Assembly: GCA_030265395.1 (NCBI GenBank)
Contig: JARFYF010000001.1
Coordinates: forward strand, 91,996,871-92,060,870
Direction: 5' to 3'
DNA: 64,000 nt
Source: Rhina ancylostomus
Lineage: Eukaryota
Of this stretch, positions 231 through 62,504 are shown piece after piece. The translations under genes were made by a program, and so were the position numbers. Numbering within the stretch: the first letter of the stretch is position 1; every line of letters starts with the position of its first letter. The notes below the pieces were generated by a model. It was not told the origin of the DNA, did no database searches, and saw nothing but the letters and a program-made list of their open reading frames with translations.

Positions 231-1770
231 AAAGGGGAAGATACATCTGGTTGCATTTTTTCTCCACATCCCCCCCCCCCTTTGTTTTCCCTCATTACCT
301 GTGGCCCCTTTCCTTTCCCCTCACCCACCCTTATGACCTACCTACTACCTCCCTCTTATTCCCCACTTCCTTTGTTTCATGGTCTACTATCCTCTCCTAC
401 TAGATTCATCCTTCATCAGTTGTCTCCCAGCTTCTCACATCATTCCCATTCTTTCCCCCTCCCCACCCAAATCCACCTCACCACCTTCCCCAGCACTCCT
501 TGGCTTGCATTAGTTCCTGGTTCAAATCACTCCTTGGCCTTGCAGTTCCACTAACATCTTCAACACCCTCCAGCCCAGGAGTGCATGGGACCTGGAAATT
601 GTAGTGCTCCTAAATATCTGCTGCCTTTGATCTTGTAGGTTGGAAAAAAAGGTGCTGCCAAAGCCTGCATGAGCAGTGATGGCAAAGCTCTTAAGACAGG
701 AAACAAATGTTGCACTCGTGACTGGGAAAGAGTGAAATTTTAAAGTGATGAACATAATCCCAATCAAGCTGAATACTCTGTTCTAGATGGCATCTACCTC
801 TAGTAGTATTGAAGGTACATTTTCAAGGAAGTACACAATATCCTATCACACGCCAGATAGTAGAGAGGCTTTTAGGAATCAGGTTTTAGTTACTCCAAAA
901 TACCTAGCCTCTGACTTGCTCTTGTACCCATGGTCCACAGTGATTTCCTAGAGGCTGATGATACAGAATTCAGTACCACTACTGCCACTGAAGGTCAATG
1001 TGGTTAGATTGTTAGTGAGTGTCACATTTACTTGATATGCATCACCCCAAGCATGTGTTGCTCACATTACATTCAAGATGGGACTTGTTTTAATGCAAGA
1101 TCTGAAAAAGAATGTCTCTAAACAGGTGAGCATTCACCCAGTGCATGAATTAAATGGACTTAAGACACAAAAACCACAACCTTTAACTGAGTAACAAGTG
1201 CTGTTACTGAGTAACAGCTGGCACATACAAGACATACAGACAAGTGTAATTAAATCCTGCTGCATTAATTGAGCTCAGTACACAGTAACTAGCTTGAGCC
1301 CTTGATTCTACAATCCTATAGCTGTAAATCTTAGAAGAGCAAAAGCAAAATACTGCACATCAAATTAAAAGATGAGCATTAACAGGTTTTGCACATCATT
1401 AATTATAAACAAAATTCAACATCATTGTAAATTAAAACCCTAACATAGGAATTTGATGTAGATAGCAATGGGCAGGGGTTGGATGTAGGCCACTCAGACT
1501 CAAGCAACTTCCAGAAAATTTTGCTACAGAACTTTTCAATACATTGAGAGTCACTCAACAGGTGCAATGCATGATCTATGAACCCCACTCTTCCACAGAG
1601 GAAAGTAAAAAATTCAAATTTTCCAGTACTGGCTATCTTGTTTTGGGTTATCCTTGCTTTTGGATCTGACATTGTCCTATATTTTAAAATACCAGTGAGA
1701 AAAATTCCAGTGTCCCCAGTAAAGTTCAGAAACATGAAATGTACAAAATTTTAAGTAACTATGTACATTC

Positions 1771-1776
1771 TTTATT
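1771..1776 (-). terminator. Candidate polyadenylation signal AATAAA, copy A
   Basis: tttatt on the + strand, 250 nt past the stop codon, in a context similar to copy B. Confidence 0.5.
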
Positions 1777-2025
1777 TAAAAGGAGTACATAAGAGAAATG
1801 TAATTTACATCATTACATTTAATACCAAAAGTAAAAAAAGAAACTGGATCCATTGCCAAAAAAATCTAAAGTGAAGTAAATGAGTTATTTAACTCTCAGT
1901 GACAAGTTAAATGAATACAGTTCATTAAATGCAGCTACAGCTTTAACAAATTTAAGATTTGTTTTTCTCAGACAAATTCAATTCTTTACATCACCTTTCA
2001 CTCACTCAAGTCCACATCAACAGGC

Positions 2026-5000
2026 TTAATCTGTACTCTCACCAGAAGGGGATCGTGTACGTGATCTTACATGGTCCCCAGAGGCCATGGAGGAATGACC
2101 TCTCTGCTCCTTAGCAGGAGCAGGTGATCTACTATCAGATCGGGATTTGCTGCGACTCCTACTTCTACTTCTGGAACGACTATAGGACTTACGGCCCCTG
2201 GAACGAGATCTGGAAGAGCTTCGGCTACGAGAATGAGACCTACTACGAGACCTGAAAAAGAAAATGTACATTTGAATGGTCAGAACAAAAATACTATTTT
2301 ACAACAACTCAGTCTAGATACAGGCTTGTAATAAATTTTTTGCTTTAGTTTTATCCAGTTAACATCCAGTCTTCATGTTCCTGAATTGGTATATGCAGGC
2401 TGGTAAAACCAAACTTGAGGTGTTAGCTGCTAAAACCAAAATGTATATATTTAACCACTCTAGCTCAATGATCCTGTTGCCTGTACCAAGTTAGTCAATA
2501 TTTAAAAGCTATTCTATCTTATAAATCTTCTTACTTAATTAAAATCCAACACACACTAGACCAAGGTACTTCAAGTTAACAGAATTAGAGGGTTATACAG
2601 CACAGTAAACAACTATTCAGCTCAGAGGCCATACCAGCTCTAAGCAAGAGCAATCCCAGTTTGTCCCAGTCATTTCATGTGTTTATCCAGTTGCCTTTTG
2701 AACACTACAATGAAATGTGTCTCCACCACTACCCCGGCAATGTGTTCCAGACCTTAACCACTCATCAAGCCAATTTTTTTTTAAACCCCATTTCACTTGT
2801 GATTCTTTTCCCCCACTTTTGTTTTATGGCCCCTATTTCTTNNNNNNNNNNCAATGGGGACTGTCCATCTCCTATCTATACGATTCTAAAATACTTCAGT
2901 TCTCCTCACAATTGCCTCTATTCCAAGAAGAACCACCCAACCATTTCCACTTTCTACATGTGAAGTCCTTCATCCAAGTCATTTTGCTTAATCTTTTCCT
3001 AACCTTGTCCAAATGCCTCACATCTTCAAAGTGTAGCACCCAAAACTAGACATAATAGGCCAGATGCATTTTATAAAAAAAGTTCATCAAGCCTTCTTTG
3101 CATTTGTACTCCATGGCTCTATTCATAAAGTCTAGGATTCCAACTGCTTTTTCAACCTGTTTCTCAACTTGCATGAACAGTTTTATTGCATCATGCACAT
3201 ACGTAGATCTGTTCCTGTGCTCCTTTTTACAACTGTGCCCTTCGGATTATACTACCCTTTCTCATTCTTCCTCAAAATGTAACACTTCACATTTCATCAG
3301 CCTGTTTATATATCAGTGATGTCTAATATCATTCTTTAGGAGACAAGAAACTGCAAATGCTGTAATCTGGTGCAAAAACAAAATGCTGGAGTTCAGTGAG
3401 TTAAGCAGGCAAAGGAATGGTTGATGCTTCAGCTCAAGATCCTAATTCTATCCACAATTTAACTGGTGGAATATATTCTGTATCTTGTTATTCATTAATA
3501 AGATGAAATGTTTTATTACAAGTTTATTATTACTAGTTTGAAAAAATATGTATGGGAGAATTTGCTAAAAGTCATTTCTGTAAATCAGGACATTCGTAAT
3601 CCAGAGAGCCCCTGAATTTCATAAATTTTCATGCCTTTGTACTCAAATCACTGGAAGTTAACTTGCAAAGATATCAGGCAATGAAGGTGAATTGTATGTT
3701 GGCCTTTACTGCAAGAAGATTTGAATGCAGATGTAAAGACATCTTTCTGCACTTGAAATTCTCCTTGGAGACTGTACTTTGAGTATGCGCCACAGATGCT
3801 CTCTCTGTCCAAGGAAGGATATACTTGTGATGGAGAGTGCAACAAAGAATTGTCACATTGATTCCTGGGATCCTATGATTAAGTAGACAGTCTATATTCT
3901 TGTGTTTAGAAGATGACAGGCAATCTCATTAAAATATATTCTCACAGGGATCAACAGAGAAAATTGAGGAATAATATATCCCCTGTCTGAGCTGTCTGGA
4001 GTCAAAGTTCTCAGGTTTTAAATAAGTGGTCTGCAAATCAGAACTCAAATAACATTTCTTCACCCATAGGGTGATGAACTTTTGGAAATCTCTTTCCGAG
4101 GGGCTTGGAGGCTTAAGTCACTGGGTATATTCAAGACAGAACTGAACATTTTTAGCTCTAAATAGGTCAGCTTAATCCAAGGTGCAGAAAATTAGTGAAA
4201 CAATAAATCAGGGATAGTTAGTGAGTTCATCTCTATGTCCTTTTTTGAACATACATTTACAATCTTATAGTCCTCAGACATTACACCAGAAATCTACAAA
4301 TGTTCAGAAAATTATAACCAGATCTCTCGTAATTTCCCCTTTCTTCCCGCATTAGAACTTAAGTGCAGATGCTCTTCTTGTGCTTCCTTTTAATCTTTTT
4401 AAGAATTGATATCTGAGGTTGATATCTACTCTATGCAACCAAGTTGTATTGCAATTACCTGCGTTGTTTACGTTCCTCAACCACTCTGATCTTTCTTCCA
4501 TTGAGCTCTGTGCCAGAGAGCTTCTCAAGAGCATTTTTCACATCACTATAGGAGGCAAACTCAACAATTCTAGAAAAAGAAACAGACTTAAGTTTGTAGT
4601 CACATAGAACACGCTTCACAAGAAATACAATTGTACACCACTTGAGTTCCTCATGTCTGCTCCTCCATTCAATAAGATCATGGTTCATGATTTATCTCAG
4701 CACCACTTTCTTGCATGAACCCCACACCCCTGGATTTCCTTAATTTCCAAATAACTGTCAATCCATCTTGAATATACTCAGCAAGCCCCAATTCTTCACC
4801 CTCTGGGTATCGAAATTTCTTCTCACCTCTGCCTCAAATGGTTGGCAGGTTTTTTTTGAGAAAATGACCCTTTGTTCTATTTGTCCCAACCCAACCAGAG
4901 AAAACAACAATATTATATCCCTTCCCAATTTTGACTTTTCCATCACCACCTGTCTTAGGGGGATAGGTTTGCCACTGACATCCATTANNNCCCAGTTATC

Positions 5001-8000
5001 TTGAACAAACCTTCTCCCACCCCTCTCCCATTTCTGCACTCCCTGTCATTACCTGTTCCGAAGACAGGATTTTCCACACCAGTGCCTCAGACGTCTTTTT
5101 TCTTCATTATGACTTCCCCTTGACCATAACTGACAAGGCCCTCAACTGCATTTACCCTGTCAAACACTTAAGAATGTTGTATGTTTCAATGAGATCACTT
5201 CTTATCAGAGTCACTCACTTATATAATGTTGTGAAATACGTTGCTTTGTAGAGAATATTGGCTGAGTATTCTCCTCATACAACAGAGTCAATCTGGTGAA
5301 TCTCTGCTGCACCCCCTCTACTGAAAATATATTCTTCCTTGTGTAGGGATACAATCTCAGCAAGGGTTTATATATAACCACTTTTACTCTTGCAAAGAAA
5401 TTTTCTTGTATTAACGGCTAACAGATTGCATGCCTACTTGCTTGCTGAACCTGCATATTAACTTTGTGATTTGTATACATGTATCTATCTAAATATCAAC
5501 ACTTTTCAATTCTTCAGCATTTAAAAATACATCACTTTTCTATTCTTCTACCAAAATTGATGATTTCACATTTTCCTGCTGCCATTCATTTCATCTGTCT
5601 ATATCCCCTGAAATTTCTCTCCATCCCACTCACAGCCCAAATTACCACCAGGTTTTGTGTCAAAGTTGGATGTATTACACTTAATTCAATCTAAATCACT
5701 GATGTCAATTGTGCATTTGGGAACATAGCATCAATCCCTTGGCACCCAATTGGTAACAACCTTTTAAAACACAAAAATAATTGTCAATGCCATTTACTCT
5801 TTGTTCAGTTATCTATTATGCAGCATTTTCAAGTCTAACACACAACTTTAACTGGTGCACCTGTATGCTTGCTACAATCAAGAAAATCCAATAGATTTAT
5901 CAAACGTGATCTCCTTTTCATAAATCCATATTCACTTTGCCCAATCCTATAATTATTTTCCCAAGTGCCTTGTGTTACAGACTGTTACAATTAGTGAGGT
6001 TCGATNNNNNNNNNNNNNNNNNNNNNNNNNNNNNNNNNNNNNNNNNNNNNNNNNNNNNNNNNNNNNNNNNNNNNNNNNNNNNNNNNNNNNNNNNNNNNNN
6101 NNNNNAAGTAGTTTTTAAACACTTATACATGTCTCAGTGTGTTTCTGTTGTTGCTGGTACCTAACACTCGTTTTATCTCTTCAATAACAGATTCCAGTAT
6201 CATCAGGCTAACTGGTCTATTCATTCCTTGTTATTGTTCTGTTTCTCCCTCCCTTGATATTTTAGTTCTGAGGAAAGTGCAAGACCACTCAGAATGCTCA
6301 GATGAAACAGGGTAGATGTAAACAGTGTAAACGTTCAGATTTCCTTACAAACATGATAGGAAAATATGACAATCCAGTCATTTATTTCAAAACTATTTTA
6401 AAAGCTTTCTACAACTGATTTTAGGACCACTTACAGTGAAATGTGGAGCAATTTCTTAGTAAATAGTTCACAGATGATTACAAACCAGTTTCTCACAGCA
6501 GCATAGTTTTACAACAGCATTAGCACAGATTTTATAACCCTTTTGCCTCCCCTCCCATTTACAGAAGCTATTTACAGACTGACACTACCCATTCGATGGA
6601 AGCCTTCCCGGTCATCACCCTCCTTTAAAGGCAGACATTGCCACAGGAACAGGCTATGACAAGTTCAAAATATCTTGTAACTCACCCTTCGTTCATCTTG
6701 TGCCTGTGTGCATCTGCAAAGGTAACTTCTCCAGCCTGCCTCATGAAATCTTTCAGATCCTATGCAAGAGCAGATCAGTTAGACAAATCAAAGCTTATTC
6801 ATATAAAATGTCTCTATTTCCATATATCATTGGAAAAGCAAGCAAAAAAAAGACATCCAATTTCAAAATTTGTATTACCTTCCCGTACAATTCCCTAGGC
6901 TATTCAACCAGCCAAATGTAACAAGTGTTCGCAGAGGCACCACCACGACCGAAGACCAGATGGTTCTCTTCACCACCCGCTTGACTGACACTACCCATTC
7001 GATGGAAGCCTTCCCGGTCATCACCCTCCCTTAAAGGCAGACTCTGGCATTGCCATAGGAACAGGGATTGCTACTCTTGCGCTGTGACCACGGACTTCTT
7101 GCCTCACTCCAATCGAGCTTCCAAACAACCCTACCAGCGAATTTCTCCCAATCAAGGACCTCGCATTTACAGCAGGCTCTCAGAACTCTCGACTTTAGGA
7201 CACCTTGTTATCATTTTCAGGGATGCAGCAAGGTAATGGCACTAAACCCAGTGCCCACCAGTGTTGGTCAGGCCACCACAACACAGATTTAGATCAGCAA
7301 CTGATAAAGGTAGGAGCAGATTGGCATTTCAACTAGGCCCAAGAGACCAAGGCACAGCGATTAGGAAAACCAACGGCACTCCACGTCACAAGGCCAACGA
7401 CACGAGAGGCTGGTAAATAAAGGTTTTAACACTTGGTTAAATTTCAAAAAACAAAATCTGAGTGAACACATTTTAGTTAAGGTTAGTAGGCAATCAAAAG
7501 TTATTTGTATTTAAAGAAGTTAAGCTAATCAAGTTAAAAGGAGCAGTACTTAATTTTTGTAGGGCAACTAAAGGTCAACTGATTCTTTAATATACTGTAG
7601 TTCACATCTATTCTATATGGATCACCTTGCTTTTTTTGCAATGAGGCCAAAAAGGGCAGCAAAAGAAAAAGTACAATATGACAATGCCAATTTAGTACAA
7701 AAATAAATTCTATGCCAAAAGTAGATAGAAGTCTCAGTTTTCCCTTCATGATGGTGTACTTAATTGTCTAACCCCAATTTCCTTGTCAAAGGTGCTAACC
7801 TTACTTGAGTTCCCAAGTATAATTCTCCAATTAACCAATGTGCAAGTTTTATTTAAGTGTCAGCAAGCAATTGTGCTGTGGGGTCTAGCGATATCAAAAG
7901 GCAAACCCACTTAACTTTTCACCTTTCCATCAATGTTGTTACTGGGGCTCCTGGCATTTTTTTCCCTCCACCCTCTAGCCTAGCAACATACACTGGCCAA

Positions 8001-10771
8001 GGTCATCCAAATTAATGCAGATCCATTTATCCTGCTCAAAACCACAATACATTAAAGAGCCCTTGGGTCCCTCAAGATTTTCTCAAAGAAATGTTTAAGA
8101 TGGAAAAAAACAGGACCAAATTCCAAAATTATCACAGGTCTCTAAATAAGTTGAAAGTCAGCATCATTGCTTTCAAAGAAAGTTTTATATTGACCTCATA
8201 GCAAAAAAAAAGTTAATGCTCCAACTCAAACCCAGACATTGGCATTAAGTGTAGCACCTTTAACTGCAATTTTTCAATTCATGGGAACACTTGGAAAGTG
8301 ACAACTTTTATCAACCAACTGTTAATGACATGTTTTTATTAAGAGTCATTTTCACAATAAAAAGATTACATATTTAATATGGACATTTCAGGAGTGTCCA
8401 CACATTTGTTTGGTGAAAATTGCTACCTTTATAAATATAGAAACTGATAATCCAGTTTAGGCATGGTAGCAGCTCAAGCTATTGTACTAATGTCACAATT
8501 ACATTCCATGTTTCAACTGCAAGGCAGTGTTTTTTTGGAAGGAACTATACTGACATACATAATGCCAAAATGTTGAGAACATCTTTTTGTTCTCCTACAC
8601 CATGTTACTATGATTTTGTGTAATTCATGCACTGAACAATTATTTGTCAATGTTTCTTTAAATTCAGTTAGAACATGTTGTAACACTTGTTTCTCAAAAA
8701 TCTGGCAGAGACAGTATTACACTGTGTCCTTGCCTGGAAAATGACTCTTAAGTTAACCTTGAAAGCTCTGCTTACAATTCAATAAATGCTAGTTTAATTT
8801 TTCAACTGGTTTAACAAATTACACAAAACTGTGATATAGAATTAGATAATACATGCGACATACCTGCCAGCTAACTCTGGAAGACAGATTTTCAACAATA
8901 ACTCTGTTTTCTGTTCGAACTGGCGGCCCATTTCTAAAATGGATAATATGTTATGTTCTGTACTTTACAGTTATCAACAGGTACTTCTTTCTGGACATAG
9001 TTCAGAAAGAAAAAACAAAAACTTCCTGCTTCTCTGCAATTCCCACTTTAAAACTACTAAACATTTCTCACATTCTTGAGAACATTCAAAACTCAAAGTT
9101 TTTCTATTTTCAGTTGATGAATGTAGGTTTTAGAAGTCTGAGGTTTACCTTGAGAATATTGACCAAGCTTCTCTTCCCACCATACAAAAGATTTGAAATC
9201 ACTGGTTTTAAAAGAAAATATGACAACGCACGAGCATTGATTGGTCTATGAGGCCATAATAATCTTACCCAAGTGAGAGTCTGGAAATTGAATGTCATCA
9301 GTCTACTTGCTATTTAGGCAGCAGTTATCTCGGGCTTCAACCAGAGAGTGTTCAGTTTCTATTTGTCATTTCAATAAGAACCATATGTTTTCAGGCTCCT
9401 ATCCCCGAGGATTGTAAGATAATGGTACGAAGTGTTGCAAGTAAAATTTCATGGATTAAATCCAAGATCTTCCAGTTCCAATGGCTCAGCACCACACTAA
9501 GTTACCTATTTATGGCAAGCAACATCTCTACTTAACTAATGTTAACAAATTAACATGGACTTAATATAAACAACAGGCAAAAAACATTTTGCCACTTACA
9601 ACTTTTGAATGGGAACAGTACAAAAATTGTATAATAAATTAATTTGTCATATTAAACAAACCTAGACACCTCATATGACAAGTTATTTGCTTAATCAATC
9701 TACTAAAACTTCTAAAGAAAGTAAGTTTGCACATTCGCTACATTTCCAAGCTTTTTAAAAACAAAGGTGAATGAACATACCTTCCCGAACTACGTTGATA
9801 GCTTTGGCTAAAGCGACCTTGATATCTTCCTCCTCGTCCTCCCCTATTGCGTGCTCTGGCATGCTCAACTGTCACTCTGCACACAAAATGCTTAATTATG
9901 TAGCTAGAAACATTGAAGAATACCTTATCATTTTAAGGGTGATGGTTAATGAGACTGGAGTGCTTACCTTTCATTGCACAACTCTTTCCCATCCAGTTCA
10001 TAAACTGCATCCTCTGCATCTCTGTAATCTTCAAACTCCTGAGGATAGAACAATAGATTTGTAAGCAATTTTATTAAAAAACTGCAAGTGCTGAGAACCT
10101 ATAATAAAAACAGGAAATGCTATAAACACTCAGCAGGTCAGGCTGCATCTGTAAGAAAAGAAACAGAGTTAACACATCAGGTCAAAGAGGAAGACAAAAA
10201 GTCTTAACACAAAATCTTAAGTGTTTTTCTTTCCACAGATGCAACCTGAACAATGATCATTTACAGCATTTCTGTTTTTATAGCAGATTTATACTTTGTC
10301 TATACAATTTTCATATTCCGATAGTCTGGATCTAAAGCCCTAATTATTGGATAAGTTTCTTACAAATAAGTGATTGGAAAGCCACATCTCCACCTCCAAG
10401 AAATGGATCAAGAGCCTTCACCTACTCATATTAGTTATTCTTAAACCAAAGAAAAAGACAAAAGACTGAAAGGTAGTTTCAGTATGCATCTACAAATTAG
10501 TATTTGTCAAGATTAAATTCTCTGTACTAATTACCCAGTAGTCCCAACAAATTTTTTTAGATAAAACTGGGCAATTGAATGAATTTGATCACTCCACACA
10601 TACTCAAGAAATACAACTAACCTCAGCATTAAAAATAGAGAATCTTACCACAAATCCAAATCCATTCTTCAAATCAATTTCCTTAATTCGTCCATACCCT
10701 CTGAAGAACCTCTCCACGTTTTTTTCAGTGGCATAAGGACTCAGTCTGCCAATAAACACCCGAGCACTCAT
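2026..10771 (-). CDS. SRSF5: SRSF5-like splicing factor, tandem copy A (256 aa; RRM1-linker-RRMH-RS)
   Basis: Spliced join of 10771-10649 (123 nt, [41 protein letters not shown]), 10038-9968 (71, [24 protein letters not shown]), 9876-9781 (96), 8933-8864 (70, [23 protein letters not shown]), 6759-6686 (74, [25 protein letters not shown]), 4569-4459 (111) and 2251-2026 (226, RS domain, TAA). All introns are GT-AG, the frame is open (771 nt), and the SWQDLKD RRMH signature is present. Confidence 0.93.
3640..4230 (+). mobile_element. Degenerate CR1-type LINE 3' fragment
   Basis: atgttggccttt...gagtatgcgccacag...ttcttcacccatagggtgatgaac pattern, repeated at 22170-22560. Confidence 0.55.
4620..5990 (-). 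mobile_element. Degenerate CR1-type LINE 3' fragments in intron 6 of copy A
   Basis: Similar to 35670-37190; ORF remnant [17 protein letters not shown]. Confidence 0.5.
6879..7409 (-). other. Conserved poison (PTC/NMD) cassette exon of SRSF5 copy A, 531 nt
   Basis: Acceptor ttaaaacctttatttaccag|CCTCTCGTG. In frame after exon 5 it reads PLVSLAL-TGA. Donor GGGAAG|GTAATA. Aligns by eye with copies B and C while the flanking introns do not. Confidence 0.8.
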
Positions 10772-11149: not shown

Positions 11150-11740
11150 TTGCAATACAGGACGACCCCCTTGCCGCACTTGCATGAACAAGCGAGGGTG
11201 GGGGTGGGTGAAGAAGGGGATCATCGGCGCCTGGGACCGCCCGGCCTGCTCACCGGACATCACCGATGGGCGGACCTCCACACAACAACAACAAGAAGCC
11301 GCTAACACAACCCGAGAGCGGGCGGCCCAGCTGGAGGGGAGGGGAGGGGAGGGGAGGGGAGGGGAAAGGACCGAGGCGCCGGTGCCTCCCCAGGACACTA
11401 CCTGCGCCGCTTTCTATATCAGCCGCTCGACACAACAACCTCGGCCCACAGCCCTGCGCGGCTCAAAATGGAGGACGCGCCGCCGGCCTCAACCAATCCC
11501 ACCTCGGCAACTGTGCCGTCACTTACCGGGTGCTTAGCAACGACGTTCACTCCCCCCCCCTCACTCCCTTCCCCTCCCGTCACCATGGCGACAGCTGGCC
11601 CTGGGGCCCGTGTCCGCCTTTGAGCCGTGAGCGGGGGNNNNNNNNNNNNNNNNNNNNNNNNNNNNNNNNNNNNNNNNNCCACCGTCCCTGATCTCCGGGG
11701 CGACTCCCGTATTCGCCACGTCCCCTTGTGCGCCAATCCC
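11150..11740 (-). promoter_or_regulatory. CpG island promoter and non-coding exon 1 of copy A
   Basis: GC/CpG-rich. YY1-like CAAAATGGAG at 11464-11473, CCAAT at 11493-11497, candidate exon-1 donor GCAG|GTAGTG at 11402/11401. Confidence 0.75.
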
Positions 11741-13343
11741 AGTCTGGAGGAAGGCTGCAGCCAACATTCCTACCTATTCCTGTTGTCCAGAACCCTCCTC
11801 CCACCTCAAGAAAATATAAACGGCGTTAAAGCAAATTCCAATTGGCCCATCCAGCTTGCAACCTTTCAGTCGCAATGTTTGTGTCTATTTAGTTGAAACT
11901 ACTGTGACCATTTCGCCTACGATCACTTTCAATGCTTCTAATAAGCTCCAAACGAGTGTTTAGTCCTATACGCAATGCACTCAAAATTAATTGCATAATC
12001 TCCAATTCTAATTTACTATTTACCAGGGCCTCAAAACTATAGAACTTAAAACTTCAGACCTGATGCAGGGTCTCGACCTGACACGTCCCTTTGCCTCCAC
12101 AGATGGCTGCTTGACAAGCTGAGTTCTTCCAGCAATTATTTTTGTTTTGCTTATGAAATTTAAAACCTTGTTGCTTGGACAATATAGTCTGGCTCTTGAA
12201 GTGCCGGGTTGCTCAAAGTGTTTTATGATTCATAGGAGAAGATCATTCCGCCTGCTTTGCCACTGGATAAGATTATAGCTGATGTTTTACCTCGGCACCA
12301 CTCTCCTGTGCTGACCCCATATCTCTTGATTCCTTTAATAGCAGGAAAAAAACAATATTTCTTTTGGAAAAATAACTCGGGGACTGAACCTCCACAGTCC
12401 TCCTGGGTGGAGAATTCCTAAGATTTACACTATCTGGGAGAAGAAATTTTGCCTCATCTGAATGGCTGACCCCTGGTTCTAAGCCAAGGGAAACAATTCC
12501 ACATCTCCTCTGTTAAGCCTTGTGAGAAGTTTGTATGTTTCAATTACAAGACTTCTCAGTCTTCTAAACTCAGGAGAGTATAGGTCAATCTGTTTAATCT
12601 CTCATCATGCAACAAATTTGCCATCCCAGGAATCAATTTGGTAAGCAATGATTTGTTTGTCTTTTTTCATGGTATTGTGCTCCTGCACTGTGGCTTTTAC
12701 TCTTCACATTTTCTACCCTACCTACCTCTGTCCATTGTCCATCTCCTCCCTTGCCTCGGCTCCTCCGCTGCTGAAACTCATCCAAGTTCCCCATCCAGAG
12801 TACATTCTGTGCCCTTAAAACATTCAAAGTTTCTGTCAAGCATTGTTGGACATGGAGGAGCACTGATTCATCAGCTGATGGAGTGCAGCAGGTGGTAATA
12901 AGGATGATTTTGATCCAATAATATGAGACACCTCCCTCTTAGCCTGTATGTAGCTATACAACCACTCTCATTGGTTTGTTGTGCCTGTGAGACAGGGATT
13001 ATGATGGAAGATTGTGACCCATTATATGTAAGAATTGTTTCTGGGAGTATAACAACTACAATTGTTGCTTGACTTCACTGTGGGAAGGCCCCCTTAATTT
13101 AGGTACCAGTCCCTATGCCACAATGTTGAGCAAAGAGCAAGCTCACAGAGAACCCAAATGCAGCAGACTGGTACAGGACTGGAGTCAGGATGCTTCCTCA
13201 GGACCAAACACCAGCAGCAACTGGAAGGAATCTTGCCTCAGAGNNNNNNNNNNNNNNNNNNNNNNNNNNNNNNNNNNNNNNNNNNNNNNNNNNNNNNNNN
13301 NNNNNNNNNNNNNNNNNNNNNNNNNNNNNNNNNNNNNNNNNNN

Positions 13344-27945: not shown

Positions 27946-30900
27946 TCATTCAGCACTCTCAGCAGAAGGTGATCTGGATCCGGAATGAGATCGGGATTTT
28001 GACCGAGAACGAGACCGGGATCGAGAATGAGATCTTGCACGCTCTGCTGACTGTGGGGATTTTGCTGGGGAAGGAGACCGGCCTTTCTGCTCCTTAGCAG
28101 GCACAGGTGATCTGCTACGAGAACGTGTTTTACTGCGACTCCTACTCTTTGACCTACTGTAGGACTTCCGGCCTCTGGACCGAGATCGGCTACGTGTTCG
28201 GCTACGAGATCTGGATGAACTGCGACTACGGGATCGGGACCTGCTCCGAGACCTGAAAATACAAAGAAAATGAGAATTGTAGACCTCAAGTATCTTTGTG
28301 CATATATGCATTGAGACAGCAAAGAATTTAATTCTCAAACACGTCCTGAACACATCAGTTCACAAAGCAAGGGCAATCCTCAATTTCCAGTTGCCAGCCA
28401 CTTTAATTGTCTTATCCTACTAATGAATTTGACATATTACTATTCCAAATGAAGCCCAAGAACAGCATCTGATCTTACTACTTGGCACACAGCTGCCTTG
28501 AGGATTCAAGATCCAATTCATCAATATCAAGCAACACCCTTTCTGGCTTGTTGCAGAACTGGACAATTTTGATAAAATGTCCACCTGTAACGTGACCTNN
28601 NNNNNNNNNACCCCCCCCCTAAATAAATGCTACTTGACCATTTGAGTATTTCCAGTATTCTGTTTTATTTCAATCATCTGAAGTGTCTTCTATGTCAGTT
28701 TCACAACTTGATTATCTCTAATTATTCACCCTCTATTTACAACACATTTGGACAGATATCTGCAATCAACAAGCCTTCACCATCTTCTCTCAGCTGTCAT
28801 TTGCAGTCTACCAGGTGTTTCCTCTGAGACATCCCCTTTGTCTCCTCCATTATTCCCCCTTTGCCATATCCTTAAAATATGCTTTCTAACTTCACCTTGT
28901 TCTGATGCAGTCATCAACCTGAAATTTTAGCTCTTCCCCCCAGATTCCAAGAATTTCTAGCTTATTCTGCGGAAACGAAATGGATTGTTCTACTAAATCA
29001 TCCACCCTAAAATTCAAGACATTCTCCATTACCAAAACATGTTACTGTTCAAAGAACATCTTTTTTTAAAAAAAGGTTATTATAAACTAAATACCTCAGA
29101 ATGCTAGTTTTCACCAAAATCTCACAGCACTCTCCAAACTGTCAATCCTAAAAGAACGAAATATGTGCAAACCAAACAGGGCTGTCCCTCGAACACTGGG
29201 ACAGCATTCTCCAACATTTACCTGTATTGTTTACGTTCTTCAATCAGTCGGATCCTCCTTCCATTAAGTTCTGTTCCAGACAACTTGTCAAGTGCATTCT
29301 TCAGGTCACTATAGGATGCAAATTCTACAATCCTGAGAATGAAAAATGAAATAACTGAGGAAAAACTGCTCAGTTCTTCAGTACCACGTACTAGAACACA
29401 TGGGAGCGAACATAACTAAGAAATCAAGTGAAAATTTTGGACTCTTCAAAACTGCCACTTGAAAGTGTCATCATAAGATTTGGCTTTCAATATTTCATAG
29501 TATTATATAAAAAAAGACCCAACCATTAATACAGATCAGCTTAATTCAGCTTTGCAAACAGCACTTTAAAAATCAGTCAAGATATGACTGATAGCTGTAT
29601 CCAGCAGGAAAAAATGCTCAAAACCATACAAAAGGTCATTATAAGATAGCAACTCTGAAGTAATTCTTTGTTCTGCAATGAAAAATCATCAAAATAATTG
29701 ATATACATATAACTATGAATTCTCAACCAAATTCTAAGTGTAAGCTCAGTGGAAAACAAGTTGTTTGCATTATTTTAACATCTTAAGTATGATTAACAGG
29801 CTATGAAAGCCTTTGTTCTATTTTCCAAATTCAATGTTTAATGTACATGATTGTTTTCACCAGTTCTATCAACATTCAACAGACTGCTTCAGTTCAGATC
29901 AGCAGTTTCAAGCTGTTAAGACACCAATTCATTCTTGCAACTTACCCTTCATTGAGTTTGTGTCTGTGTGCATCTGCAAAAGTCACTTCTCCAGCCTGCC
30001 TCATAAAGTCCTTCAGATCCTAAGTAAGATCAGATCAATTAGGTAAAAAGGAGCACATTAAAATACTTGTTCTGTTATTTTCCAATATACAAGATCATTG
30101 GAAAAATTGTTTAAAAACAATTCTAATTTCAAAATTTATATTACCTTCCTGTACAATTCCCTAGGCTATTCACCCAGCCAAATGCAACAATCACTTGCAG
30201 AGGTACCACCACGACTGGAGACCAGATGGTGCTCTTCACCACCCACTTGACCGACGCTATCATTCGATGCGAGCCTTCCCGGACATCGCCCCACCTTAAA
30301 GGCAGACGCTGGCATTGCCATGGGAACAAACACTGCTACTCTTGCGCCGTACCAGGGACTCCTCACCTCACTCCAATCGAGCTTCCAACCAACCCTACTA
30401 GCGAATTTCTCCCATTTCTTTCAACCAAGGACCTCATTTTAGAGTGGGTGCCAAGAACTCTTGACTTTAGGAAGACACCATTTTCGGGGTGCAGCACGGA
30501 ACACTGGCATTAACCAAGTGCCCACCATGTAGGTCAGACCACCACACACAGATCTAGATCACCAAATGACAAACGTAGGAGCGGACTGGCATTTCAACTA
30601 GGCCCAAGAGACCAAGCCAGAGCGATTAGGAAAACCAACGGCACTCCTCGTCACAAGGCCAACGACATAACGAGAGGCTGGTAAATAAAGGTTTTAATAT
30701 TTGGTTAAACTTTGTAAACATTAAGCATAAAAACCAAACAAATGTCATTCTTAAGGCTTTCAAGGTTAACAAACAAGTTAACTGACTGAACTTCCAGAAG
30801 TCAAACTAATAGTACTGCAAATTAAACAGTTCACAAACTCCTCAATGCTATTCTATTAACCTGCACTGAAGGCAGGTATTTAATCAGTTTCCCCACTAAT

Positions 30901-37819: not shown

Positions 37820-37960
37820 GCCGCTGAAATGACGCAGTTTAAATAAAAGTCGATCACAAAATGGAGATCGCCAGTTACCCGGCGCTGACGTCACCACGGG
37901 GCGGGGCCCGGTGGCTCAAGTGTGGGGCTACGTCATCCCCGATCGGGCGGGATGGAGTCG
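37820..37960 (-). promoter_or_regulatory. CpG-rich promoter and exon 1 of copy B (partly in the assembly gap)
   Basis: CAAAATGGAG at 37857-37866, full CRE TGACGTCA at 37886-37893, GC box GGGGCGGGG at 37898-37906. 37830-37866 aligns with copy C 50208-50245. Confidence 0.7.
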
Positions 37961-40900
37961 AAGCCTTTGAGGGTCACATAGGACATAACAGTGCAAGTTA
38001 TTCGTGTAGTTCCTTTAATTTCGGCTGGGTGTTGGACGCTCGGAGTTAAAGTCGAGTTCATTGCCATGTGCACCCAGGACGGTGAGGTACAGGTACAATA
38101 AAAACCTTGCTTGCAGCAACTTCATTGGCATGTAGGTACAGACGGCAGACGTAATATAAATAATGCAAGGCAGTAAGGAGAGAAAGTGAGGGTGTGTGTG
38201 TGTGCAAAAACAAGACACAACTAGAGACGTCTATTGGTAGTGTAATACGTGGTCTCTAGTGTTCCATTGCTGAGATAGGGTTAGGGTTATGCAGGTCATT
38301 TCAAGAACCTGGTGGTTGTAGGAAAAGCCTCATCCTGGTGGCGTGGGACTTCAGGCTTCTGTACTTCCTGCCTGACGGCATTGACACAAGAAAATAGGAA
38401 TATCCTCTTAAACCTACACTGCCATTCAACATGATTGTGACTGATCTAAAGTGGCCTTAACCCCTCTGCCACTCCACCATAGTCCACATTTCCTAAAACT
38501 TTTAAAAAGTTCTCCACTTTAAATAGTACCTGATGATCTCACCTCCACAACACTCAGGTGTAGAGAATCCCAGAGATTCACCACCTTCTTCAAGGAGAAA
38601 TTCTTATGAACTTCAGTTTTAAATGACTGCCCCATACTTTGTAATTATACCCTTTTGTTGGTGACTCTCCCACTGATGAAACCATCTTAACAGCTATCCT
38701 GTCAAGCCCCTTAGGAACTTGCATGTTTCAGTAAAATCACCTGTCATTCTTCTAAAGTGCAAAAATACATTCCCAGGCATTGATGCCGTCGTCATGTGTT
38801 CACTTCCCGCCCCCATCCACATGCCTCACAGCATGTCCTCCTTTTCTCTAAATCACTTTGAGTATCTCCTGCACTTCTTACACACTCTCATCCTCCCTCA
38901 CCCCAATCCTAGCAGCACAATTGTCCATGATCTTGGCTCCAAGGCTGGCCACACAACTTCCCACATTCCCAGCCCTACTCCTGGCTGATTACCTGCCCAC
39001 ATACCTACCCATGCTGACCATACAATTGTCTACATTCCCATCCCCACACCTATTCCTACACCTGATGGAAAGCAAAGAAAACTGCCCAATCTGGAATCTG
39101 AAATAGAAATGCTGAAAGAACTCAACAAGTCAAACAGCATTGTAGAAAGTAAAGCTAGTTAACATTTCAGGTCAAACACCTTTCATCATCTGTTAACTGA
39201 TTTCTTTCCACAGATGTTCCTTGACAGGCTGAGTGCTTCCAGCATTTCTGTTTTTCTCCCTAACCCTGATGCTAGCCAAGCCGTAGCCCACATTTTCAGC
39301 CCAACTCCTGGGTGAACAATTGCTCATATTCCCAGAATGTTCCTGGTTACACAACTTCCCACATTCCAATTGCCACTAGTGTAATGGAGCTGTGCAGAAA
39401 ATTATGTTGAGTGGATGGCTAGGACAGTAGCAGATCAGTGTGGCTGTAACGATAGCCATCTTAGTGAAATGAAGTAATAACACAACAATAATTTGTACGT
39501 GATCAACTCTTGCTGTTCTTCTGCAGTCCCCCAGGGTCAAAGGCAACTTGGTTTCACACCAATTCTGTGGGTTCTTAGGTGACTATGAGTCCAAATGTGG
39601 GACCTGGAGACTACCACAGATGGGTAGTTTGGGAAATGGTGTAATTTCCACTAATNNNNNNNNNNNNNNNNNNNNNNNNNNNNNNNNNNNNNNNNNNNNN
39701 NNNNNNNNNNNNNNNNNNNNNNNNNNNNNNNNNNNNNNNNNNNNNNNNNNNNNNNNNNNNNNNNNNNNNNNNNNNNNNNNNNNNNNNNNNNNNNNNNNNN
39801 NNNNNNNNNNNNNNNNNNNNNNNNNNNNNNNNNNNNNNNNNNNNNNNNNNNNNNNNNNNNNNNNNNNNNNNNNNNNNNNNNNNNNNNNNNNNNNNNNNNN
39901 NNNNNNNNNNNNNNNNNNNNNNNNNNNNNNNNNNNNNNNNNNNNNNNNNNNNNNNNNNNNNNNNNNNNNNNNNNNNNNNNNNNNNNNNNNNNNNNNNNNN
40001 NNNNNNNNNNNNNNNNNNNNNNNNNNNNNNNNNNNNNNNNNNNNNNNNNNNNNNNNNNNTGAGAGGAAATACTGGAAGATTCTTGCAATGCTATTAACAT
40101 TGCTTACATTCTTTCAGCCTCCTGCAACTATTCCCAACCAACTACTAGCAACTAACTTTAAGCAATATACCTAGATGTGCTTCAGACAACTGCTTCTTAA
40201 TAGCTGTTGATTCCTGTGGTGGAACAAGATCTCTAAATCCCCACAGAACCAGACCTTTCTTAGTGTTTAACTTATTACTACTTAAAGATGATGCATTGCA
40301 CCATTTTCTTTATCTTCCCATCCTTGCTGGATGTTTGGGTACACCTGAGAGCATGCACCACTACCTGTGGTACAAGTAGAACTTTATCACTCTAACCTAG
40401 AGCTAAACCTATCTAATTGTGAGTATTGCTTCTCTAGTTTTGTATCAAAGTTCCTTTCCAATCTGTCACTCCTCTACATTCTCTATATAGTGTGACAAAA
40501 CCACAACAATACAAATTGCTGATGTCTGGTGGTACTTTGCATAACTTCACTGGACCATAATGAAGAACAATCCATGAAATCAGCAGCAACTGCTTTGACT
40601 TTCAGACCCCAACTTCTTGACTTTGTCCATTTCCATGCTGTGATTCAGCAAATCATGTCGAGATCCTAACATTACTGAAAGATTTACAGGGAATGTTAGG
40701 AGTGATACTTTAAGTTGTCTTTAATTCCACACAACTGCATCCCTTTAAACACTATTTTCATACCTTACAGAAATCTCTGCAACATTGGCTCAACAANNNN
40801 NNNNNNNNNNNNNNNNNNNNNNNNNNNNNNNNNNNNNNNNNNNNNNNNNNNNNNNNNNNNNNNNNNNNNNNNNNNNNNNNNNNNNNNNNNNNNNNNACCA

Positions 40901-43301: not shown

Positions 43302-48074
<4,773 letters not shown>

Positions 48075-48119
48075 TGTATCTGATGACAATGAGAGAAAAC
48101 AATGTTAGTCACTAGAAGG

Positions 48120-49739: not shown

Positions 49740-50400
49740 CCAGCAACCTTGGGGGCACCGGGCCAGCCCGAAGCTTCACGACGAGCAGCCGCCTCACTGG
49801 TGGGTCCTCAGCGGCAAATAAGCCGCAAAGAGAGATACGGTTAAAACTCTCCCCCACCCCCACTCGCAAAACTAAACGCCACAGGACATCAGAGCAGCGC
49901 CTCCCGTTCCCACATCGACCAGCCCCCGCTTCCCCTCCCAAGGTCAGTCAGCGGTGGGGGAAACACCGTTCGGCCGCGGTCGCCGAGCTCTCAGGTCCCG
50001 GGCCCGGAGGCCGACCTTCCCGCCGGTTTTTAGGCCCACCGATCGGCTTCTCCGTCCGCACCGACAAAACGCCCGACTGCTAAGCCCTTACCAGTCAGCC
50101 CACCTATCCTATCCACTCCACTCCACATTCCCCCCCCCCCCGGTAGCAGCCGGACCCCAGACACCCCCCCCGGACCCGACGTTACCTACTCGGACGCTCC
50201 GTTCAACTGACGCAGACGAAATAAAAACCGATGCACAAAATGGAGCCCGACGCCCTGCGGCGGCCAATCACAGGGCGCGCCGTAGCGTCACCTCCGCTCT
50301 CTGTGTCGCGTCGCCGGCGGTCGGCTGGCGACGGGGAGTGGCGGTGTCCTGCGCTGTGGGCCTGTTCTGCTAGTTCACTCTCCGGACACTCGCTTCCACC
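49740..50400 (-). promoter_or_regulatory. CpG island promoter and non-coding exon 1 of copy C
   Basis: CpG-rich. CAAAATGGAG at 50236-50245, CCAAT at 50264-50268, candidate donor GTAG|GTAAC at 50186/50185. Confidence 0.78.
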
Positions 50401-57965: not shown

Positions 57966-58799
57966 GATTGCTTTCAGATATCAAATGTTGAGCTTCAGAT
58001 TAATGTCTTTGCATTAGGACTGAATGGAAGTAGATTAAAACAACAGCAGCCCTAAAGTGTTGCATTATGCTAAAATTGAATGAACAGAACCTATCTCTTC
58101 CTTTCTCCTTGTGTACTTGCATTCCCTTAAGTGCCTTTTGTAATACAGCTGCTAACTCGTGTTAAACATTAACTGGAGATATAGGGAAGGAAAATAACGC
58201 TTTTATTCTTGCCATCATATCATGTTTTAAAATAAGTCAATTATATAAATGAAATGAATGAGCATAGCAAACCCAATTTACTTTTTGTTCTTGTTTCAGC
58301 ATGCACAAAGGTGACCTCTTCAGCCTACCTCATTGTCCTTTAAATCCTATTGCAGAAGAACAAGAACAATTTCCACTCATTTAACAACATTCTTTTGTAT
58401 TATGTACAACATCAAGACAAGTAAATTATGATTCAGCAGTTATAAAGTTTTCTGTAGCAGCACTCAACTCTCCTGTTTAGGTGCTTTGTTCATTTTGATG
58501 GAAAATAGGAAACTTAAGTAAAATGAAGTAATTTTTAATAATTCCTAATTGATTTATTAAACTATGCATTTTTATACACTTTTGTAAAGGAATACAAGTT
58601 ACTTGAGGTAACTGTATTCTCTTGATGGGGGAAAAGTGTAAAATTGGCAACCCTTTTTTAAGTTAACCAAGGGTTTCGATCATTAGTTTGTGAAATTTGT
58701 TCTTCAAATCCAAGAGAAAAAGAAACTGTAATTAGGCTTTATTATGGCCCTGGGCTCGTTGCCTTATTTCTTAGCAAAGTCAATCTTTGAAAAATCTGC

Positions 58800-59672
58800 T
58801 TCAGAATCAGAACAAATTTATTATCATTGACTTGTATAACATTTTGTTGTTTTGTGGCAGCAGTACATTGAAAAGACACAAAATTACTATAAATTACATA
58901 AGCAGGAATAATGAGGTGGTGTTCACAGACCATTCAGAAATCTGATAGCAGAGGGGAAGAAGCTGTTTCTGAATCATTGACTGTAGGTCTTCAGGCTCCT
59001 GTAACCTCCTCTCTGACGGTAGTAAGGGGAAGAGGGTGTATCCCACAAGGTGAGGATCCTTCGTGATTGATGCCACCTTCTTGAGTTGCCACTTCTTGAG
59101 GGTGTCCTCAATGGTGGGGAGGGTTGTGACAATGACGGAGCTGGCTGAATCTACAATCTTCTGCGGCCTCTTGTGAACCTGTGCTTTGGAACCTTCACAC
59201 TAGGCTGTGATGCAACCAGTCAGAATGCTCTCCACCATACATCGATAGAAATTTGTAGGAGTCTTTGGTAACATACTGAATCTCCTCAAACTCCTAACAA
59301 AAGTAGAACCACTGGTGTGCCTTCTTCATGATTGCATCAATGTGTTGGCCCTGAATAGATCCTTTGCAATGTTGATGCCCCCTAACTTGGGCATCGCCCT
59401 TTCTACCCACTGACCCCTCAATGATGACTGCTGTGTGTTCTCCCAACTTCCACTCCTGAAGTCCATAATCAATTCCTTGGTCTTGCTGACATTGAGTGCA
59501 TGGTTATTGTTGCAACACCACTCAACCAGCCAATCTATCTCACTCCTCCTTGCCTCCTCATCGCTGTCTGAGATTCCACCAACAACAGTGGTGACATTGG
59601 TGAATTTATAAATGGCATTTGAGCTGTGCTGAGCCACAGAGTCATGAGTGTAGAGAGAATAGAGCAGTTGCT
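58800..59672 (-). mobile_element. Rex1/Babar-type LINE 3' fragment
   Basis: IYKFTNVTTVVGGIS..DEEA.RSEI..LVEWCCNNNHALNVSKTKELIMDFR. Confidence 0.8.
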
Positions 59673-61454
59673 TATCAAGTTACTTGATTTGTTTTCTTTC
59701 AAGGAAATCAAAACCTCAACAGAATTCCTAGACAGTATTTCGCTTTTTTTTATATACTGACCTTCCAAATAACCATTATTTTAATTGTAAACAGAAATCA
59801 CTTGGAGTAAATACAGTCTCTCTCATTAATAAAACAAACTATGCAAAAAATGAATTAATCTTTTAAAAGTTGGTGCTAACTTTTGCACTTTTTTGGAGCT
59901 CCCATTTATAATTGAGCATTATTAACATTATGCATGTCAACCATCACTAAATTAGTCAGGCTATTGCTTCCATGGGCATGACGACTGTACGTAAATAGCA
60001 CACAAATGAAAGAAAGCCAAAAACAAAATCAACTCCAGTAGTTAACAATACAAAGGAAGGAGCATCAATCCTCAAGAAAACAGAGTGGCTGCAAAACAGT
60101 AGGCTTAAAGATATTATTTTACATATTCTTGGGAGGGGAACAATAGTCGTTGACAATTTCTTCACAATTGAAGTGTCAGGTTTACACTAAAGCCAATTGT
60201 GAACATATTAAGTAGAAATGAAACTATGCAAGCAATACTTCAAAGGAAATGAAGTACTGTATACTAAATTCAAAGACAAAATCTAATTTTGAATGATGAG
60301 TTCCCAGAATTGGCAGATTCATTTACTTTTGGTGTTAGTGCAAGACTGTGACACTTTCTAGAAATTACGTTCTAGAAATGACTTTCTAGAAATGAATGTC
60401 ACTTAAGAATGTGCATGTTCTGCAGACATCCTAAAGCAAGTTTCAACTCATTATGTTTTAAACTATATTTCTCTGAGCAATATGGTCAAATAGAGGGATG
60501 AATTTGGAACAGCAAATCAGGCTAATTATCAGGTGGTTCTGTTGGTTTAGGAATCAACATTGGCAGAATATGTAAAGAAATCGCTGTTCTCTCAATAACA
60601 TAATCAGATAATATTCACCCAAATATGCAGGGCCTTAATTTTGTAACCCATTTGATATGTGGCTCTCTGACATTTCAACTTCTGTTGAGTTTTGATCAGC
60701 TCACTGGCTTGAACAATATACCTGTTGATTCAGTGATAAGAATGAAACCAAATGAGCCAAAATGCCATTGCATGTTCTAAAAGGTAATTTGATATTTAGT
60801 GTGGTCAGTTCCATCTTAAACTTGTAGACTAAAAGTATGAAATCAGGTTAGCAATCTTTAAATGGGAATTGTGCAATAACACATGTTCAGAGGAAATATT
60901 AATATAAAGTTCATTTGGTATTCCTATGCATTTCATACAATGAATATGAACTGTTTTATATCAGTCTTGCTTGATCAATCTTGCATGACTAATGGCAGAC
61001 TTATGCAAAGGGTGGAAGAACTGTGAAAGAGACACTCACCACTATTTATATCAAATCATTAGAAAAAAGTTCTTAAGTTCAAAGCAGCACAGAGCCACAT
61101 AAAAAAACAATAAAAACATTTTCATCATCTAAAGCAGCAGATTTAAGTTACAGAAAGTTCAGAATCAAGGAACATTGGGCAAAGCAACTTAACAGGAATC
61201 ATTCTTGGAACATATCAATGTGAATAATAGAGTTGTTACCTAAATAGTAAAGATACTAATGTGGTAAGTGAGGCAAAAGCATTTCTTTTATGTCAAAAAA
61301 TCTGTTCAAGGATAAATTTAAATCAATTTAAGAGTCTCTATGCCCACTTACTAACACACATTCAAAAGCCTACTACAATACATTCAAAGAAGAAAAATAG
61401 CTCAGGTGACATATTGCTATGTGTCACTGTGGAATGTCTGTGTTTGGTCTCACC

Positions 61455-61700
61455 AATGTGACTAGGTGATCGTTTCACAGAACACCTGCACTCTGTCCGT
61501 AACCGCAATCTACATTTCCCCATTGTCAGTCACTTCAACTACCCTCCCACACTATCACAGATAGGTCAATCCTCGGCCTCCTCCACTGCCAGGAAAATTC
61601 CGAGCACAACCCGGAGGAACAGCGCCTCATTTTCCACTTGGAACCTTGCAGCCTAACAGCATGAACATTGAATTCTCCCACTTTAAGTAATTCCCACACC
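61455..61700 (+). mobile_element. Penelope-like element, GIY-YIG C-terminal fragment
   Basis: Pattern RF.EHL.SV...HFN..H....EEQRLIF.L....QPNSMNIEF. Confidence 0.7.
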
Positions 61701-61842
61701 CCTTCCCCTAAAACCTTATCCCACCTCCCAACCATGCTTGAATTAAGCTCATGCATAACATCTTGCATGCAAAATATCAAACAGGGATTTTGCATTGTTT
61801 GTTTACTGAGTCAGGCCTCACGATAAATTGGCGAACATTTAG

Positions 61843-62096
61843 CTCTCATTGCACAGCTCTTTCCCATTCAACTCAAACTACATCATTGGCATCTGTATGA
61901 TCTTCAGATGTACAGAAAGTAATACGTATAATGACTCATCAAACCACAGGCCAAAAATATTTTGCAGTTGCCACAATGCCAAAGCCATTATTTAAGTTGA
62001 TTTCTAAAATGTGTCCATATCCCTCAAAACAACTCTCCACATCCTTCTCTTGGGTACAGGGCCTCAAATGACTAGTGAGTACTTGCCAATTCATTT
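61843..62096 (-). pseudogene. Degenerate SRSF5-like copy D (remnants of exons 2 and 3)
   Basis: 62094-61972 is exactly 123 nt and reads MNWQVLTSHLRPCTQEKDVESCFEGYGHILEINLNNGFGIV, after a tttacag acceptor, with the donor changed to GCAACT. About 61911-61843 reads ..EDHTDANDVV/ELNGKELCNE with a 2-nt frameshift, and both splice sites are lost. Confidence 0.85.
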
Positions 62097-62504
62097 CTGT
62101 AAAGGTGTAGTAGGATCTGCTTAGTTTAAACACAAAACATTAATCTCGCACCAGAATACTGCATTTGTTAAGGAAACAAAGTCACATTTGGAAATTATGT
62201 GCCGGTAAAATAGACTGCTAAATATTTGGATCCAACTGAACTGGGCATTTTTGCCAATATATCAGCGGATTGAGACACATTCCAACAATGAAACAAACAG
62301 ACCCAACCTTAAAAAGAATCCTATTCATATTCAAACCTATCTTTATTCATGATTATCAGAAATGCTTTTCCTGTGATTAGAAACTGTCATAACATTGGAA
62401 ATGAAGATTAGAATGCTCTGTACCAAGTCTTTGCTGAGTCATTTCCAGGTTATGAAAATAAAATAACAAAAATAAAAAACAAATTTTTAAGATTTATAAG
62501 AGCT

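Follow-up and report, generated by a model that had tools for sequence, protein, structure and literature searches.

SRSF5 genes and poison exons in vertebrates

The closest described system is vertebrate SRSF5 (SRp40), which carries a poison cassette exon in intron 5 and is subject to AS-NMD (Lareau and Brenner 2015, PMC4379411). In PMC4379411 and PMC10726014 the included isoform of human SRSF5 is described as degraded by NMD, with inclusion following the level of its own protein; the protein binds around its own poison exon, and inclusion drops upon its removal. An alternative exon is also present in ESTs of chicken, frog and zebrafish SRSF5a (PMC4379411, table S1), hence a paralog with a kept poison exon is not new. 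Both members of the SRSF5/SRSF5a pair, known from chicken, frog (krt5.1) and teleosts (srsf5b/srsf5a), show this exon, and on chicken chromosome 5 they lie about 430 kb apart (PMC4379411, table S1). SRSF4 and SRSF6, of the same subfamily as SRSF5 and likewise regulated by poison exons, lost the SRSF5 gene structure, and their cassette was replaced after duplication (PMC4379411). According to Lareau and Brenner, new SR-gene duplicates are at first cross-regulated and later decouple by a poison-exon swap, the sequence rules of poison-exon conservation being still undissected (PMC4379411). Zebrafish srsf5a/srsf5b double mutants are reported to have no developmental defect (PMC5766196), so SRSF5 dose does not appear obviously critical in fish.

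The SRSF5 table of PMC4379411 has no entries for cartilaginous fish, and no paper on the elasmobranch locus described below, its age or its relic was found in the literature accessible without subscription. RefSeq models of rays and sharks already include two of the paralogs treated below, B and C, together with their poison-tail isoforms, under generic 'SRSF5-like' names that do not tell the paralogs apart. Where mammals have a single SRSF5, the ray locus holds three intact tandem copies. Our main reading, to which we give a probability of roughly 0.65, is that an old SRSF5 triplication, likely common to sharks and rays, left three intact genes which share one NMD feedback loop capping SRSF5 dose, because all three keep the intron-5 poison exon. 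The triplet involves no new mechanism; poison-exon NMD of SRSF5 and its retention in srsf5a are already published. The locus revises the history of SRSF5, cartilaginous fish having the largest vertebrate set found in this analysis.

Structure of the three intact copies

All coordinates are positions in the window, the whole analysed stretch of 64,000 nt of Rhina ancylostomus DNA (Table 1). The sequence-only reading of this window had proposed three intact same-strand SRSF5 genes, each with its own promoter and poison exon, and this picture holds. The genes, here called A, B and C, all lie on the minus strand with open frames and matching coding exon sizes (123/71/(96, 108, 99)/70/74/111/(226, 307, 268) nt). 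GT-AG borders are found in 17 of the 18 coding-region introns, the last intron of C being GC-AG. Each protein has two RRMs and an RS tail (75, 102 and 89 aa with 16, 25 and 23 RS pairs in A, B and C, respectively), and in the alignment the RNP1, RNP2 and pseudo-RRM core motifs are identical across the three. The domain set is that of the SRSF5 subfamily: an RRM, a pseudo-RRM with a helix motif that we take to be of the SWQDLKD type, and an RS domain. The B ortholog has PDB matches to SRSF1 and SRSF6. Exon breaks agree with the tblastn blocks of mouse SRSF5, that is, with SRSF5-type intron positions, whereas the SRSF4/6-type gene on contig C36 has a different layout. Unlike SRSF4 and SRSF6, copies A, B and C have kept both the SRSF5 gene structure and the cassette.

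Each copy has a CpG-rich promoter-like region (CpG o/e 0.75–1.06) with a shared 10-nt motif, which occurs three times in the window, once per region; the first exon of B extends into the N gap 37524–37819. No further copies were found by tblastn and poison-exon blastn within 80 kb on either side, of which 15,243 and 7,010 bases are N. SRSF4/6-type genes sit on other contigs (C36 and C55), and what is probably a sister segment from genome duplication carries an additional SRSF5-like gene.

Table 1. Features of the SRSF5 locus of Rhina ancylostomus (positions in the 64,000-nt window).
Feature	Position	Strand	Remarks
SRSF5 copy A, coding span	2026..10771	-	256 aa; gene model and whale shark ortholog
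Copy A, coding exons	10771-10649, 10038-9968, 9876-9781, 8933-8864, 6759-6686, 4569-4459, 2251-2026	-	
Copy A, poison exon	6879..7409	-	531 nt; stop 24 nt in
Copy A, CpG-rich promoter-like and first-exon region	11200..11750	-	GC 0.67, CpG o/e 0.75; motif at 11473
SRSF5 copy B, coding span	27946..33433	-	287 aa; gene model and Narcine RefSeq protein
Copy B, coding exons	33433-33311, 32709-32639, 32561-32454, 31829-31760, 30019-29946, 29332-29222, 28252-27946	-	
Copy B, poison exon	30145..30677	-	533 nt; stop 27 nt in; ray and shark database isoforms end in its peptide
Copy B, promoter-like region	37820..38000	-	CpG o/e 1.06; motif at 37866
SRSF5 copy C, coding span	43302..48074	-	271 aa; gene model and Mobula RefSeq isoform
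Copy C, coding exons	48074-47952, 47804-47734, 47647-47549, 46396-46327, 44416-44343, 43987-43877, 43569-43302	-	
Copy C, poison exon	44526..45029	-	504 nt; stop 24 nt in; one Mobula isoform ends in its peptide
Copy C, CpG-island promoter-like and first-exon region	49750..50400	-	CpG o/e 0.98; motif at 50245
Relic, most likely a decayed srsf5a ortholog (pseudogene)	58273..62094	-	stops and one frameshift
Relic, remains of coding exons 1 and 2	62094-61972, about 61908-61845	-	
Relic, decayed 74-nt exon	58346-58273	-	

Genomic neighbourhood and integrity of the array

The array is flanked by an alpha-actinin gene and by SLC10A1 and a SMOC-type gene: an actinin EF-hand lies 20 kb upstream, an SBF-family gene whose best PDB matches are the sodium/bile acid cotransporter SLC10A1 lies 30 kb downstream, and 310 kb downstream there is a SPARC_Ca_bdg exon, which we take to belong to a SMOC-type gene (SMOC1 in the human order). 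In the human order SRSF5 likewise lies next to SLC10A1 and SMOC1, and the neighbourhood is that of mammalian SRSF5, the srsf5b type. A Pfam scan covering 150 of the 223 minus-strand ORFs of at least 55 aa in the 80 kb upstream did not show SUSD6, the upstream neighbour expected from the human order; actinin turned up instead.

Several 100-N scaffold gaps separate A, B and C, so their adjacency rests on scaffolding, and haplotypes or separate loci might have been placed side by side by the assembly. Such an artefact is hardly credible. Haplotypes are excluded because dS between the copies is near 1 and their introns are unalignable, the flanking genes are consistent with a single locus, and in another ray the B-type and C-type RefSeq proteins have neighbouring accession numbers and come from records both of length 254,321,047, which we infer to be one and the same record.

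Age of the copies and selection

Pairwise dN/dS among A, B and C in the RRM part is 0.075, 0.075 and 0.052, with dS of 0.83–1.18 (rounded, 0.8–1.2), and bootstrapping puts the 95% upper bounds of dN/dS at 0.136, 0.13 and 0.09; judged from these sequences, the three genes are under strong purifying selection. Introns 2, 4, 6 and 7, the upstream part of intron 5 and the 3' UTRs served as control regions in 18 comparisons between copies and scored near the level of shuffled sequence (top local score 36 versus shuffle maxima of 24–33; 2 of the 18 slightly exceed their own shuffle maximum), so the copies are not an assembly echo.

In all three runs the best tree placed A, B and C with mammalian SRSF5/srsf5b (support 82/83, 88/95 and 82/95). 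Their monophyly has a support of 74/81 and the A+B clade one of 99/99. Grouping of the three with 5a was not rejected (p-AU 0.147) and grouping with shark 5a was borderline rejected (p = 0.047); the assignment of A, B and C to the 5b type (SRSF5 proper) rather than to srsf5a is moderately supported. Copy A is identical to its whale shark ortholog at 178 of 181 positions (tree support 98/94), its outside support being this one gene model; B matches a Narcine RefSeq protein at 279 of 287 positions, and C a Mobula RefSeq isoform at 118 of 121. Sharks have orthologs of A and B as well as one C-type protein; therefore the triplication appears to predate the shark-ray split and is likely common to both groups. 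Together with the low dN/dS, these orthologs bear out the earlier claim of old functional tandem duplicates. Chimaera orthologs were absent among the matches listed (6; best 120 of 765; best 120 of 485), as were full-length C orthologs, whose absence indicates patchy database coverage.

Poison exons of the three copies

All three poison exons sit in intron 5, with in-frame stops 480–507 nt upstream of the poison-exon donor. Each copy thus has what AS-NMD requires at the sequence level, a conserved alternative exon with an in-frame stop well before a later junction. By the 50–55 nt rule, stops placed in this way trigger NMD, and the stop-codon exons likely allow the SRSF5 proteins to limit their own output. 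The acceptor is homologous to the vertebrate one: Pro likewise follows this junction in database SRSF5 isoforms from orangutan, pigeon and coelacanth. Eight elasmobranch-type database proteins terminate in the peptide encoded by the poison exon, seven of the B type, one of the C type and none of the A type.

The poison exons are 82–85% identical between copies, on par with the coding sequences (80–83%), with local scores of 398–618 versus shuffle maxima of 25–31. Gene conversion between tandem neighbours, instead of shared regulation, could also have produced this likeness, and A and B do have in common an identical coding tract of 68 nt (22 codons; permutation p = 0.0003, post hoc and in one of three pairs). 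This explanation is nevertheless quite improbable, as the poison exons differ by many substitutions and indels, their longest stretches of identity being 30–32 nt, the neighbouring exons are 77–95% identical while the adjoining intron sequence does not align, the extra codon of the B poison exon (a 3-nt insertion) is common to sharks and rays, and the acceptor region is likewise kept in the distant gene on C69. It can be added that poison-exon conservation could reflect other regulators such as SRSF3, with no cross-talk between SRSF5 genes (PMC4379411).

The relic upstream of copy C

A decayed copy upstream of the array had been noted in the sequence-only reading as a fourth member of the expansion. 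The relic is real, but its kinship is different: it is most likely the dead older sister gene srsf5a, which corresponds to the second SRSF5-like gene that the sequence-only reading had named separately. It groups with shark srsf5a with support of 99/95, and a grouping with A, B and C is rejected (AU p = 0.009). Its best identities are 0.655–0.672 to shark srsf5a-type proteins versus 0.57–0.59 to A, B and C; of four diagnostic columns it has the srsf5a state in two and the ABC state in none, and the third remnant, the 74-nt exon, carries Val, the srsf5a residue. A search of the genome with shark srsf5a turned up no intact srsf5a among the best candidates. A failed fourth copy would agree with the same strand, the same spacing and the position immediately upstream of C, and the relic tree has just 58 placeable columns and a long branch (0.72); in view of the evidence for srsf5a we nonetheless regard it as unlikely.

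Beyond the three remnants, no poison exon or later exons were recovered by self-blastn or by tblastn with six shark srsf5a proteins; stretches of N at 55873 and 50550 could conceal such exons. No CpG-rich region is present in the 1.4 kb upstream of the relic. Unlike in the chicken, frog and teleost pairs, the ray srsf5a is dead and lies about 8 kb from the promoter of C, and the 5b-type member is triplicated. The loss of srsf5a in the ray lineage looks independent of that in mammals.

Alpha-actinin and SLC10A1 may once have enclosed a pair of srsf5a and SRSF5. Of this pair, SRSF5 would then have given rise to C and an A/B ancestor, and the latter to A and B before the shark-ray split; srsf5a would have died later in this lineage.

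Possible feedback and specialisation

Cross-regulation among A, B and C is something that we purely infer: each ray protein would promote poison-exon inclusion in the transcripts of all three copies, and this cross-inclusion would have offset the added dose that followed duplication and maintained the likeness of the cassettes. A possible, if less probable, course is subfunctionalisation, with the copies dividing tissues, stages or temperature responses by way of their own promoters, or with changed function of the A and B proteins, and the poison exons selected separately with little cross-talk. It agrees with separate promoters that have just short motifs in common, with paralog-specific residues that have stayed the same in whale shark and ray (copy A is 99% identical over 155 RRM columns), with the unequal RS tails and with the B-specific codon found in sharks and rays. 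Against it speak the identical RNA-contact motifs of the three proteins and cassettes without divergence of the kind seen in the SRSF4/6 decoupling model (PMC4379411). Subfunctionalisation and a shared feedback loop could both hold.

A shared dosage loop is preferred here, and a wider version of it is offered only tentatively, all its parts taken jointly. Up to five SRSF5-type genes in sharks (srsf5a, C, B, A and the genome-duplication sister) and four in rays might form a feedback network that has stayed undecoupled for some 300 million years, all of them wired to the intron-5 poison cassette, A and B being members of the loop whose function has changed; the vertebrate 5a/5b pair would then have begun as a tandem duplication, later separated in bony vertebrates. 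If so, the adjoining srsf5a relic would show the tandem origin of this pair.

The combination of saturated introns with cassettes so alike amounts to natural footprinting, in which blocks common to all three copies point to working elements, and the paralog-specific junctions make auto- versus cross-regulation directly testable. Relative to C, 5a and 5b, copies A and B carry fixed differences, e.g., at C positions 15, 18, 46 and 109, and A has several residue changes of its own; these fit specialisation as well as dosage.

Structure of the three SRSF5 genes

When the window was compared with itself, short homologous blocks fell into three collinear sets and a fourth, incomplete one. The SRSF5 triplet is real: models built from minus-strand splice sites confirm three intact same-strand genes, A, B and C, with the coding exon sizes predicted by the sequence-only reading (123/71/x/70/74/111/x nt). 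Their introns are GT-AG in 17 of 18 cases and GC-AG in one, the last intron of copy C carrying a GC donor at window position 43876.

SRSF5-type genes in the window and on another contig of the same genome, C69
Feature	Coordinates	Strand	Description
SRSF5 copy A	10771-2026	minus	256 aa, splice-site model
SRSF5 copy B	33433-27946	minus	287 aa, splice-site model
SRSF5 copy C	48074-43302	minus	271 aa, splice-site model
SRSF5-structured gene	G000:C69:3267200-3257100 (L022, L023, L025)		six open coding exons, RS-rich last exon

The core RNA-binding motifs are identical in the aligned A, B and C proteins. Over the RRM part, pairwise dS is 0.83-1.18 and dN/dS is 0.052-0.075, far from 1 (Nei-Gojobori, own script, 500 bootstraps); A, B and C are old duplicates, as had been proposed, and are under purifying selection. 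Introns other than the one with the poison exon resemble shuffled sequence in their scores, as do the 3' UTRs (top score 36 versus shuffle maxima of 24-33; 18 comparisons). A and B share an identical 68-nt coding tract (A 10690-10649 and 10038-10013; B 33352-33311 and 32709-32684) of 22 codons (p=0.0003, post hoc), spanning an intron that has itself diverged in sequence; the tract hints at old conversion or at synonymous constraint over the RNP1-coding region.

The claim that each copy has its own promoter is borne out as a prediction: upstream of each gene lies a GC/CpG-rich putative promoter region (CpG o/e 0.75 for A, 1.06 for B and 0.98 for C). An identical 10-nt motif resembling a YY1 site occurs three times in the window, only at these putative promoters (11473, 37866, 50245). 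The first exon of B runs into an N gap.

The poison-exon mechanism and the srsf5a paralog are already published, and A/B/C-type genes are already in RefSeq as 'SRSF5-like'. No description of an elasmobranch SRSF5 array was found in the open literature, and subscription papers or genome-paper supplements could mention one; the accessible part of an SR survey of 27 eukaryotes names no cartilaginous fish (PMC3173450).

Age and identity of the triplet

A protein search with one A exon as query returned six of eight candidates; the matches listed comprise a whale shark protein close to A, ray proteins close to B and C, a catshark protein nearest C and one amphibian protein. For the trees 50 proteins were aligned, 10 redundant rows were removed and 155 RRM columns were used. 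A groups with the whale shark protein (support 98/94). A and B are united in a clade that includes proteins from both sharks and rays (99/99); C joins the catshark fragment (95/77). Judging from these groupings, the duplications giving A, B and C are older than the divergence of sharks and rays, which dates to roughly 270-300 million years ago.

In each of the three trees, A, B and C grouped with fish srsf5b and mammalian SRSF5 at a moderate level of support; the alternative grouping with srsf5a, the second SRSF5-like vertebrate gene, was not rejected (p=0.147). The neighbouring genes also fit an identity of the triplet as SRSF5 proper. On the downstream side there is an SLC10A1-like gene at 30 kb, in opposite orientation, and a SMOC-type exon at 310 kb; on the upstream side, the 3' end of an alpha-actinin gene is about 20 kb from the decayed gene described below (L015-L019, G000:C1:92080500 onward). 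In human, ACTN1 is far from SRSF5, which suggests rearrangement between lineages.

The C69 gene is an apparently intact fourth SRSF5-type gene by its sequence, in which the poison acceptor can still be recognised and a stop comes after it. It branches outside both srsf5a and srsf5b, and within 500 kb of it are one actinin exon and one exon of SMOC type, as expected of a whole-genome-duplication sister, which it likely is. No ortholog was recognised among the protein matches listed.

The decayed gene is most likely srsf5a

Upstream of C, a decayed gene is present as described, with remains of three exons within 62094-58273 that carry stops and one frameshift; its assignment as a fourth copy of the triplet was not supported. 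Over 58 columns it is most similar to srsf5a-type proteins of sharks, and in a 33-row tree it falls, on a long branch, within the shark srsf5a clade (99/95). Grouping with A, B and C was rejected in this tree (p-AU 0.009). A genome search with shark srsf5a gave no intact srsf5a-type gene among its best candidates, and batoids account for 0/9 members of three shark srsf5a clusters, a weak hint of wider srsf5a loss in rays.

Lareau and Brenner place chicken SRSF5a on chr5, about 430 kb away from SRSF5, and record ESTs of chicken, frog and zebrafish that show its alternative exon (PMC4379411, in part). The position of the relic adjoining C suggests that the srsf5a/srsf5b pair arose by tandem duplication.

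Poison exons and possible shared feedback

Every intact copy holds the claimed poison exon: a conserved block of 504-533 nt in the intron that separates the 70-nt exon from the 74-nt exon. The block has a clean acceptor and donor and an in-frame stop 24-27 nt into the exon, 480-507 nt ahead of the donor. Between copies the poison exons are 82-85% identical and the CDS 80-83%. SRSF5 orthologs across animals are described with an NMD-triggering exon in the same intron (PMC4379411, in part).

Eight database proteins end in the poison-exon peptide, seven B-type (including skates, stingray, electric ray and two carpet sharks) and one C-type (manta), with no A-type among the eight. RefSeq isoforms of this kind are generally transcript-based. 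A second C-type isoform from Mobula (P0132) has a different terminal peptide following the 70-nt exon, a hint of a second unproductive acceptor in intron 5 of C.

In a human study, SRSF5 binding is strongest around its own poison exon, and SRSF5 degradation lowers inclusion from 10% to 4% (PMC10726014). Each of the three ray proteins could likewise act on all three cassettes, and a pooled dose sensor would result. Lareau and Brenner expect SR duplicates to be cross-regulated at first and to decouple later (PMC4379411, in part), whereas the A, B and C cassettes are still alike though neutral sequence is saturated. Against a dose circuit stand the identical A/B tract, with its hint of some conversion or synonymous constraint, and zebrafish double mutants, which are described without developmental defect (PMC5766196, in part); retention of the copies also fits specialisation, with which the paralog-specific fixed residues of the three proteins are consistent.

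About 80 nt inside the A poison exon (6983-7065) are duplicated at 6577-6653 with 90% identity, in the next intron just beyond the 74-nt exon; this may be a copied regulatory element or a chance local duplication.
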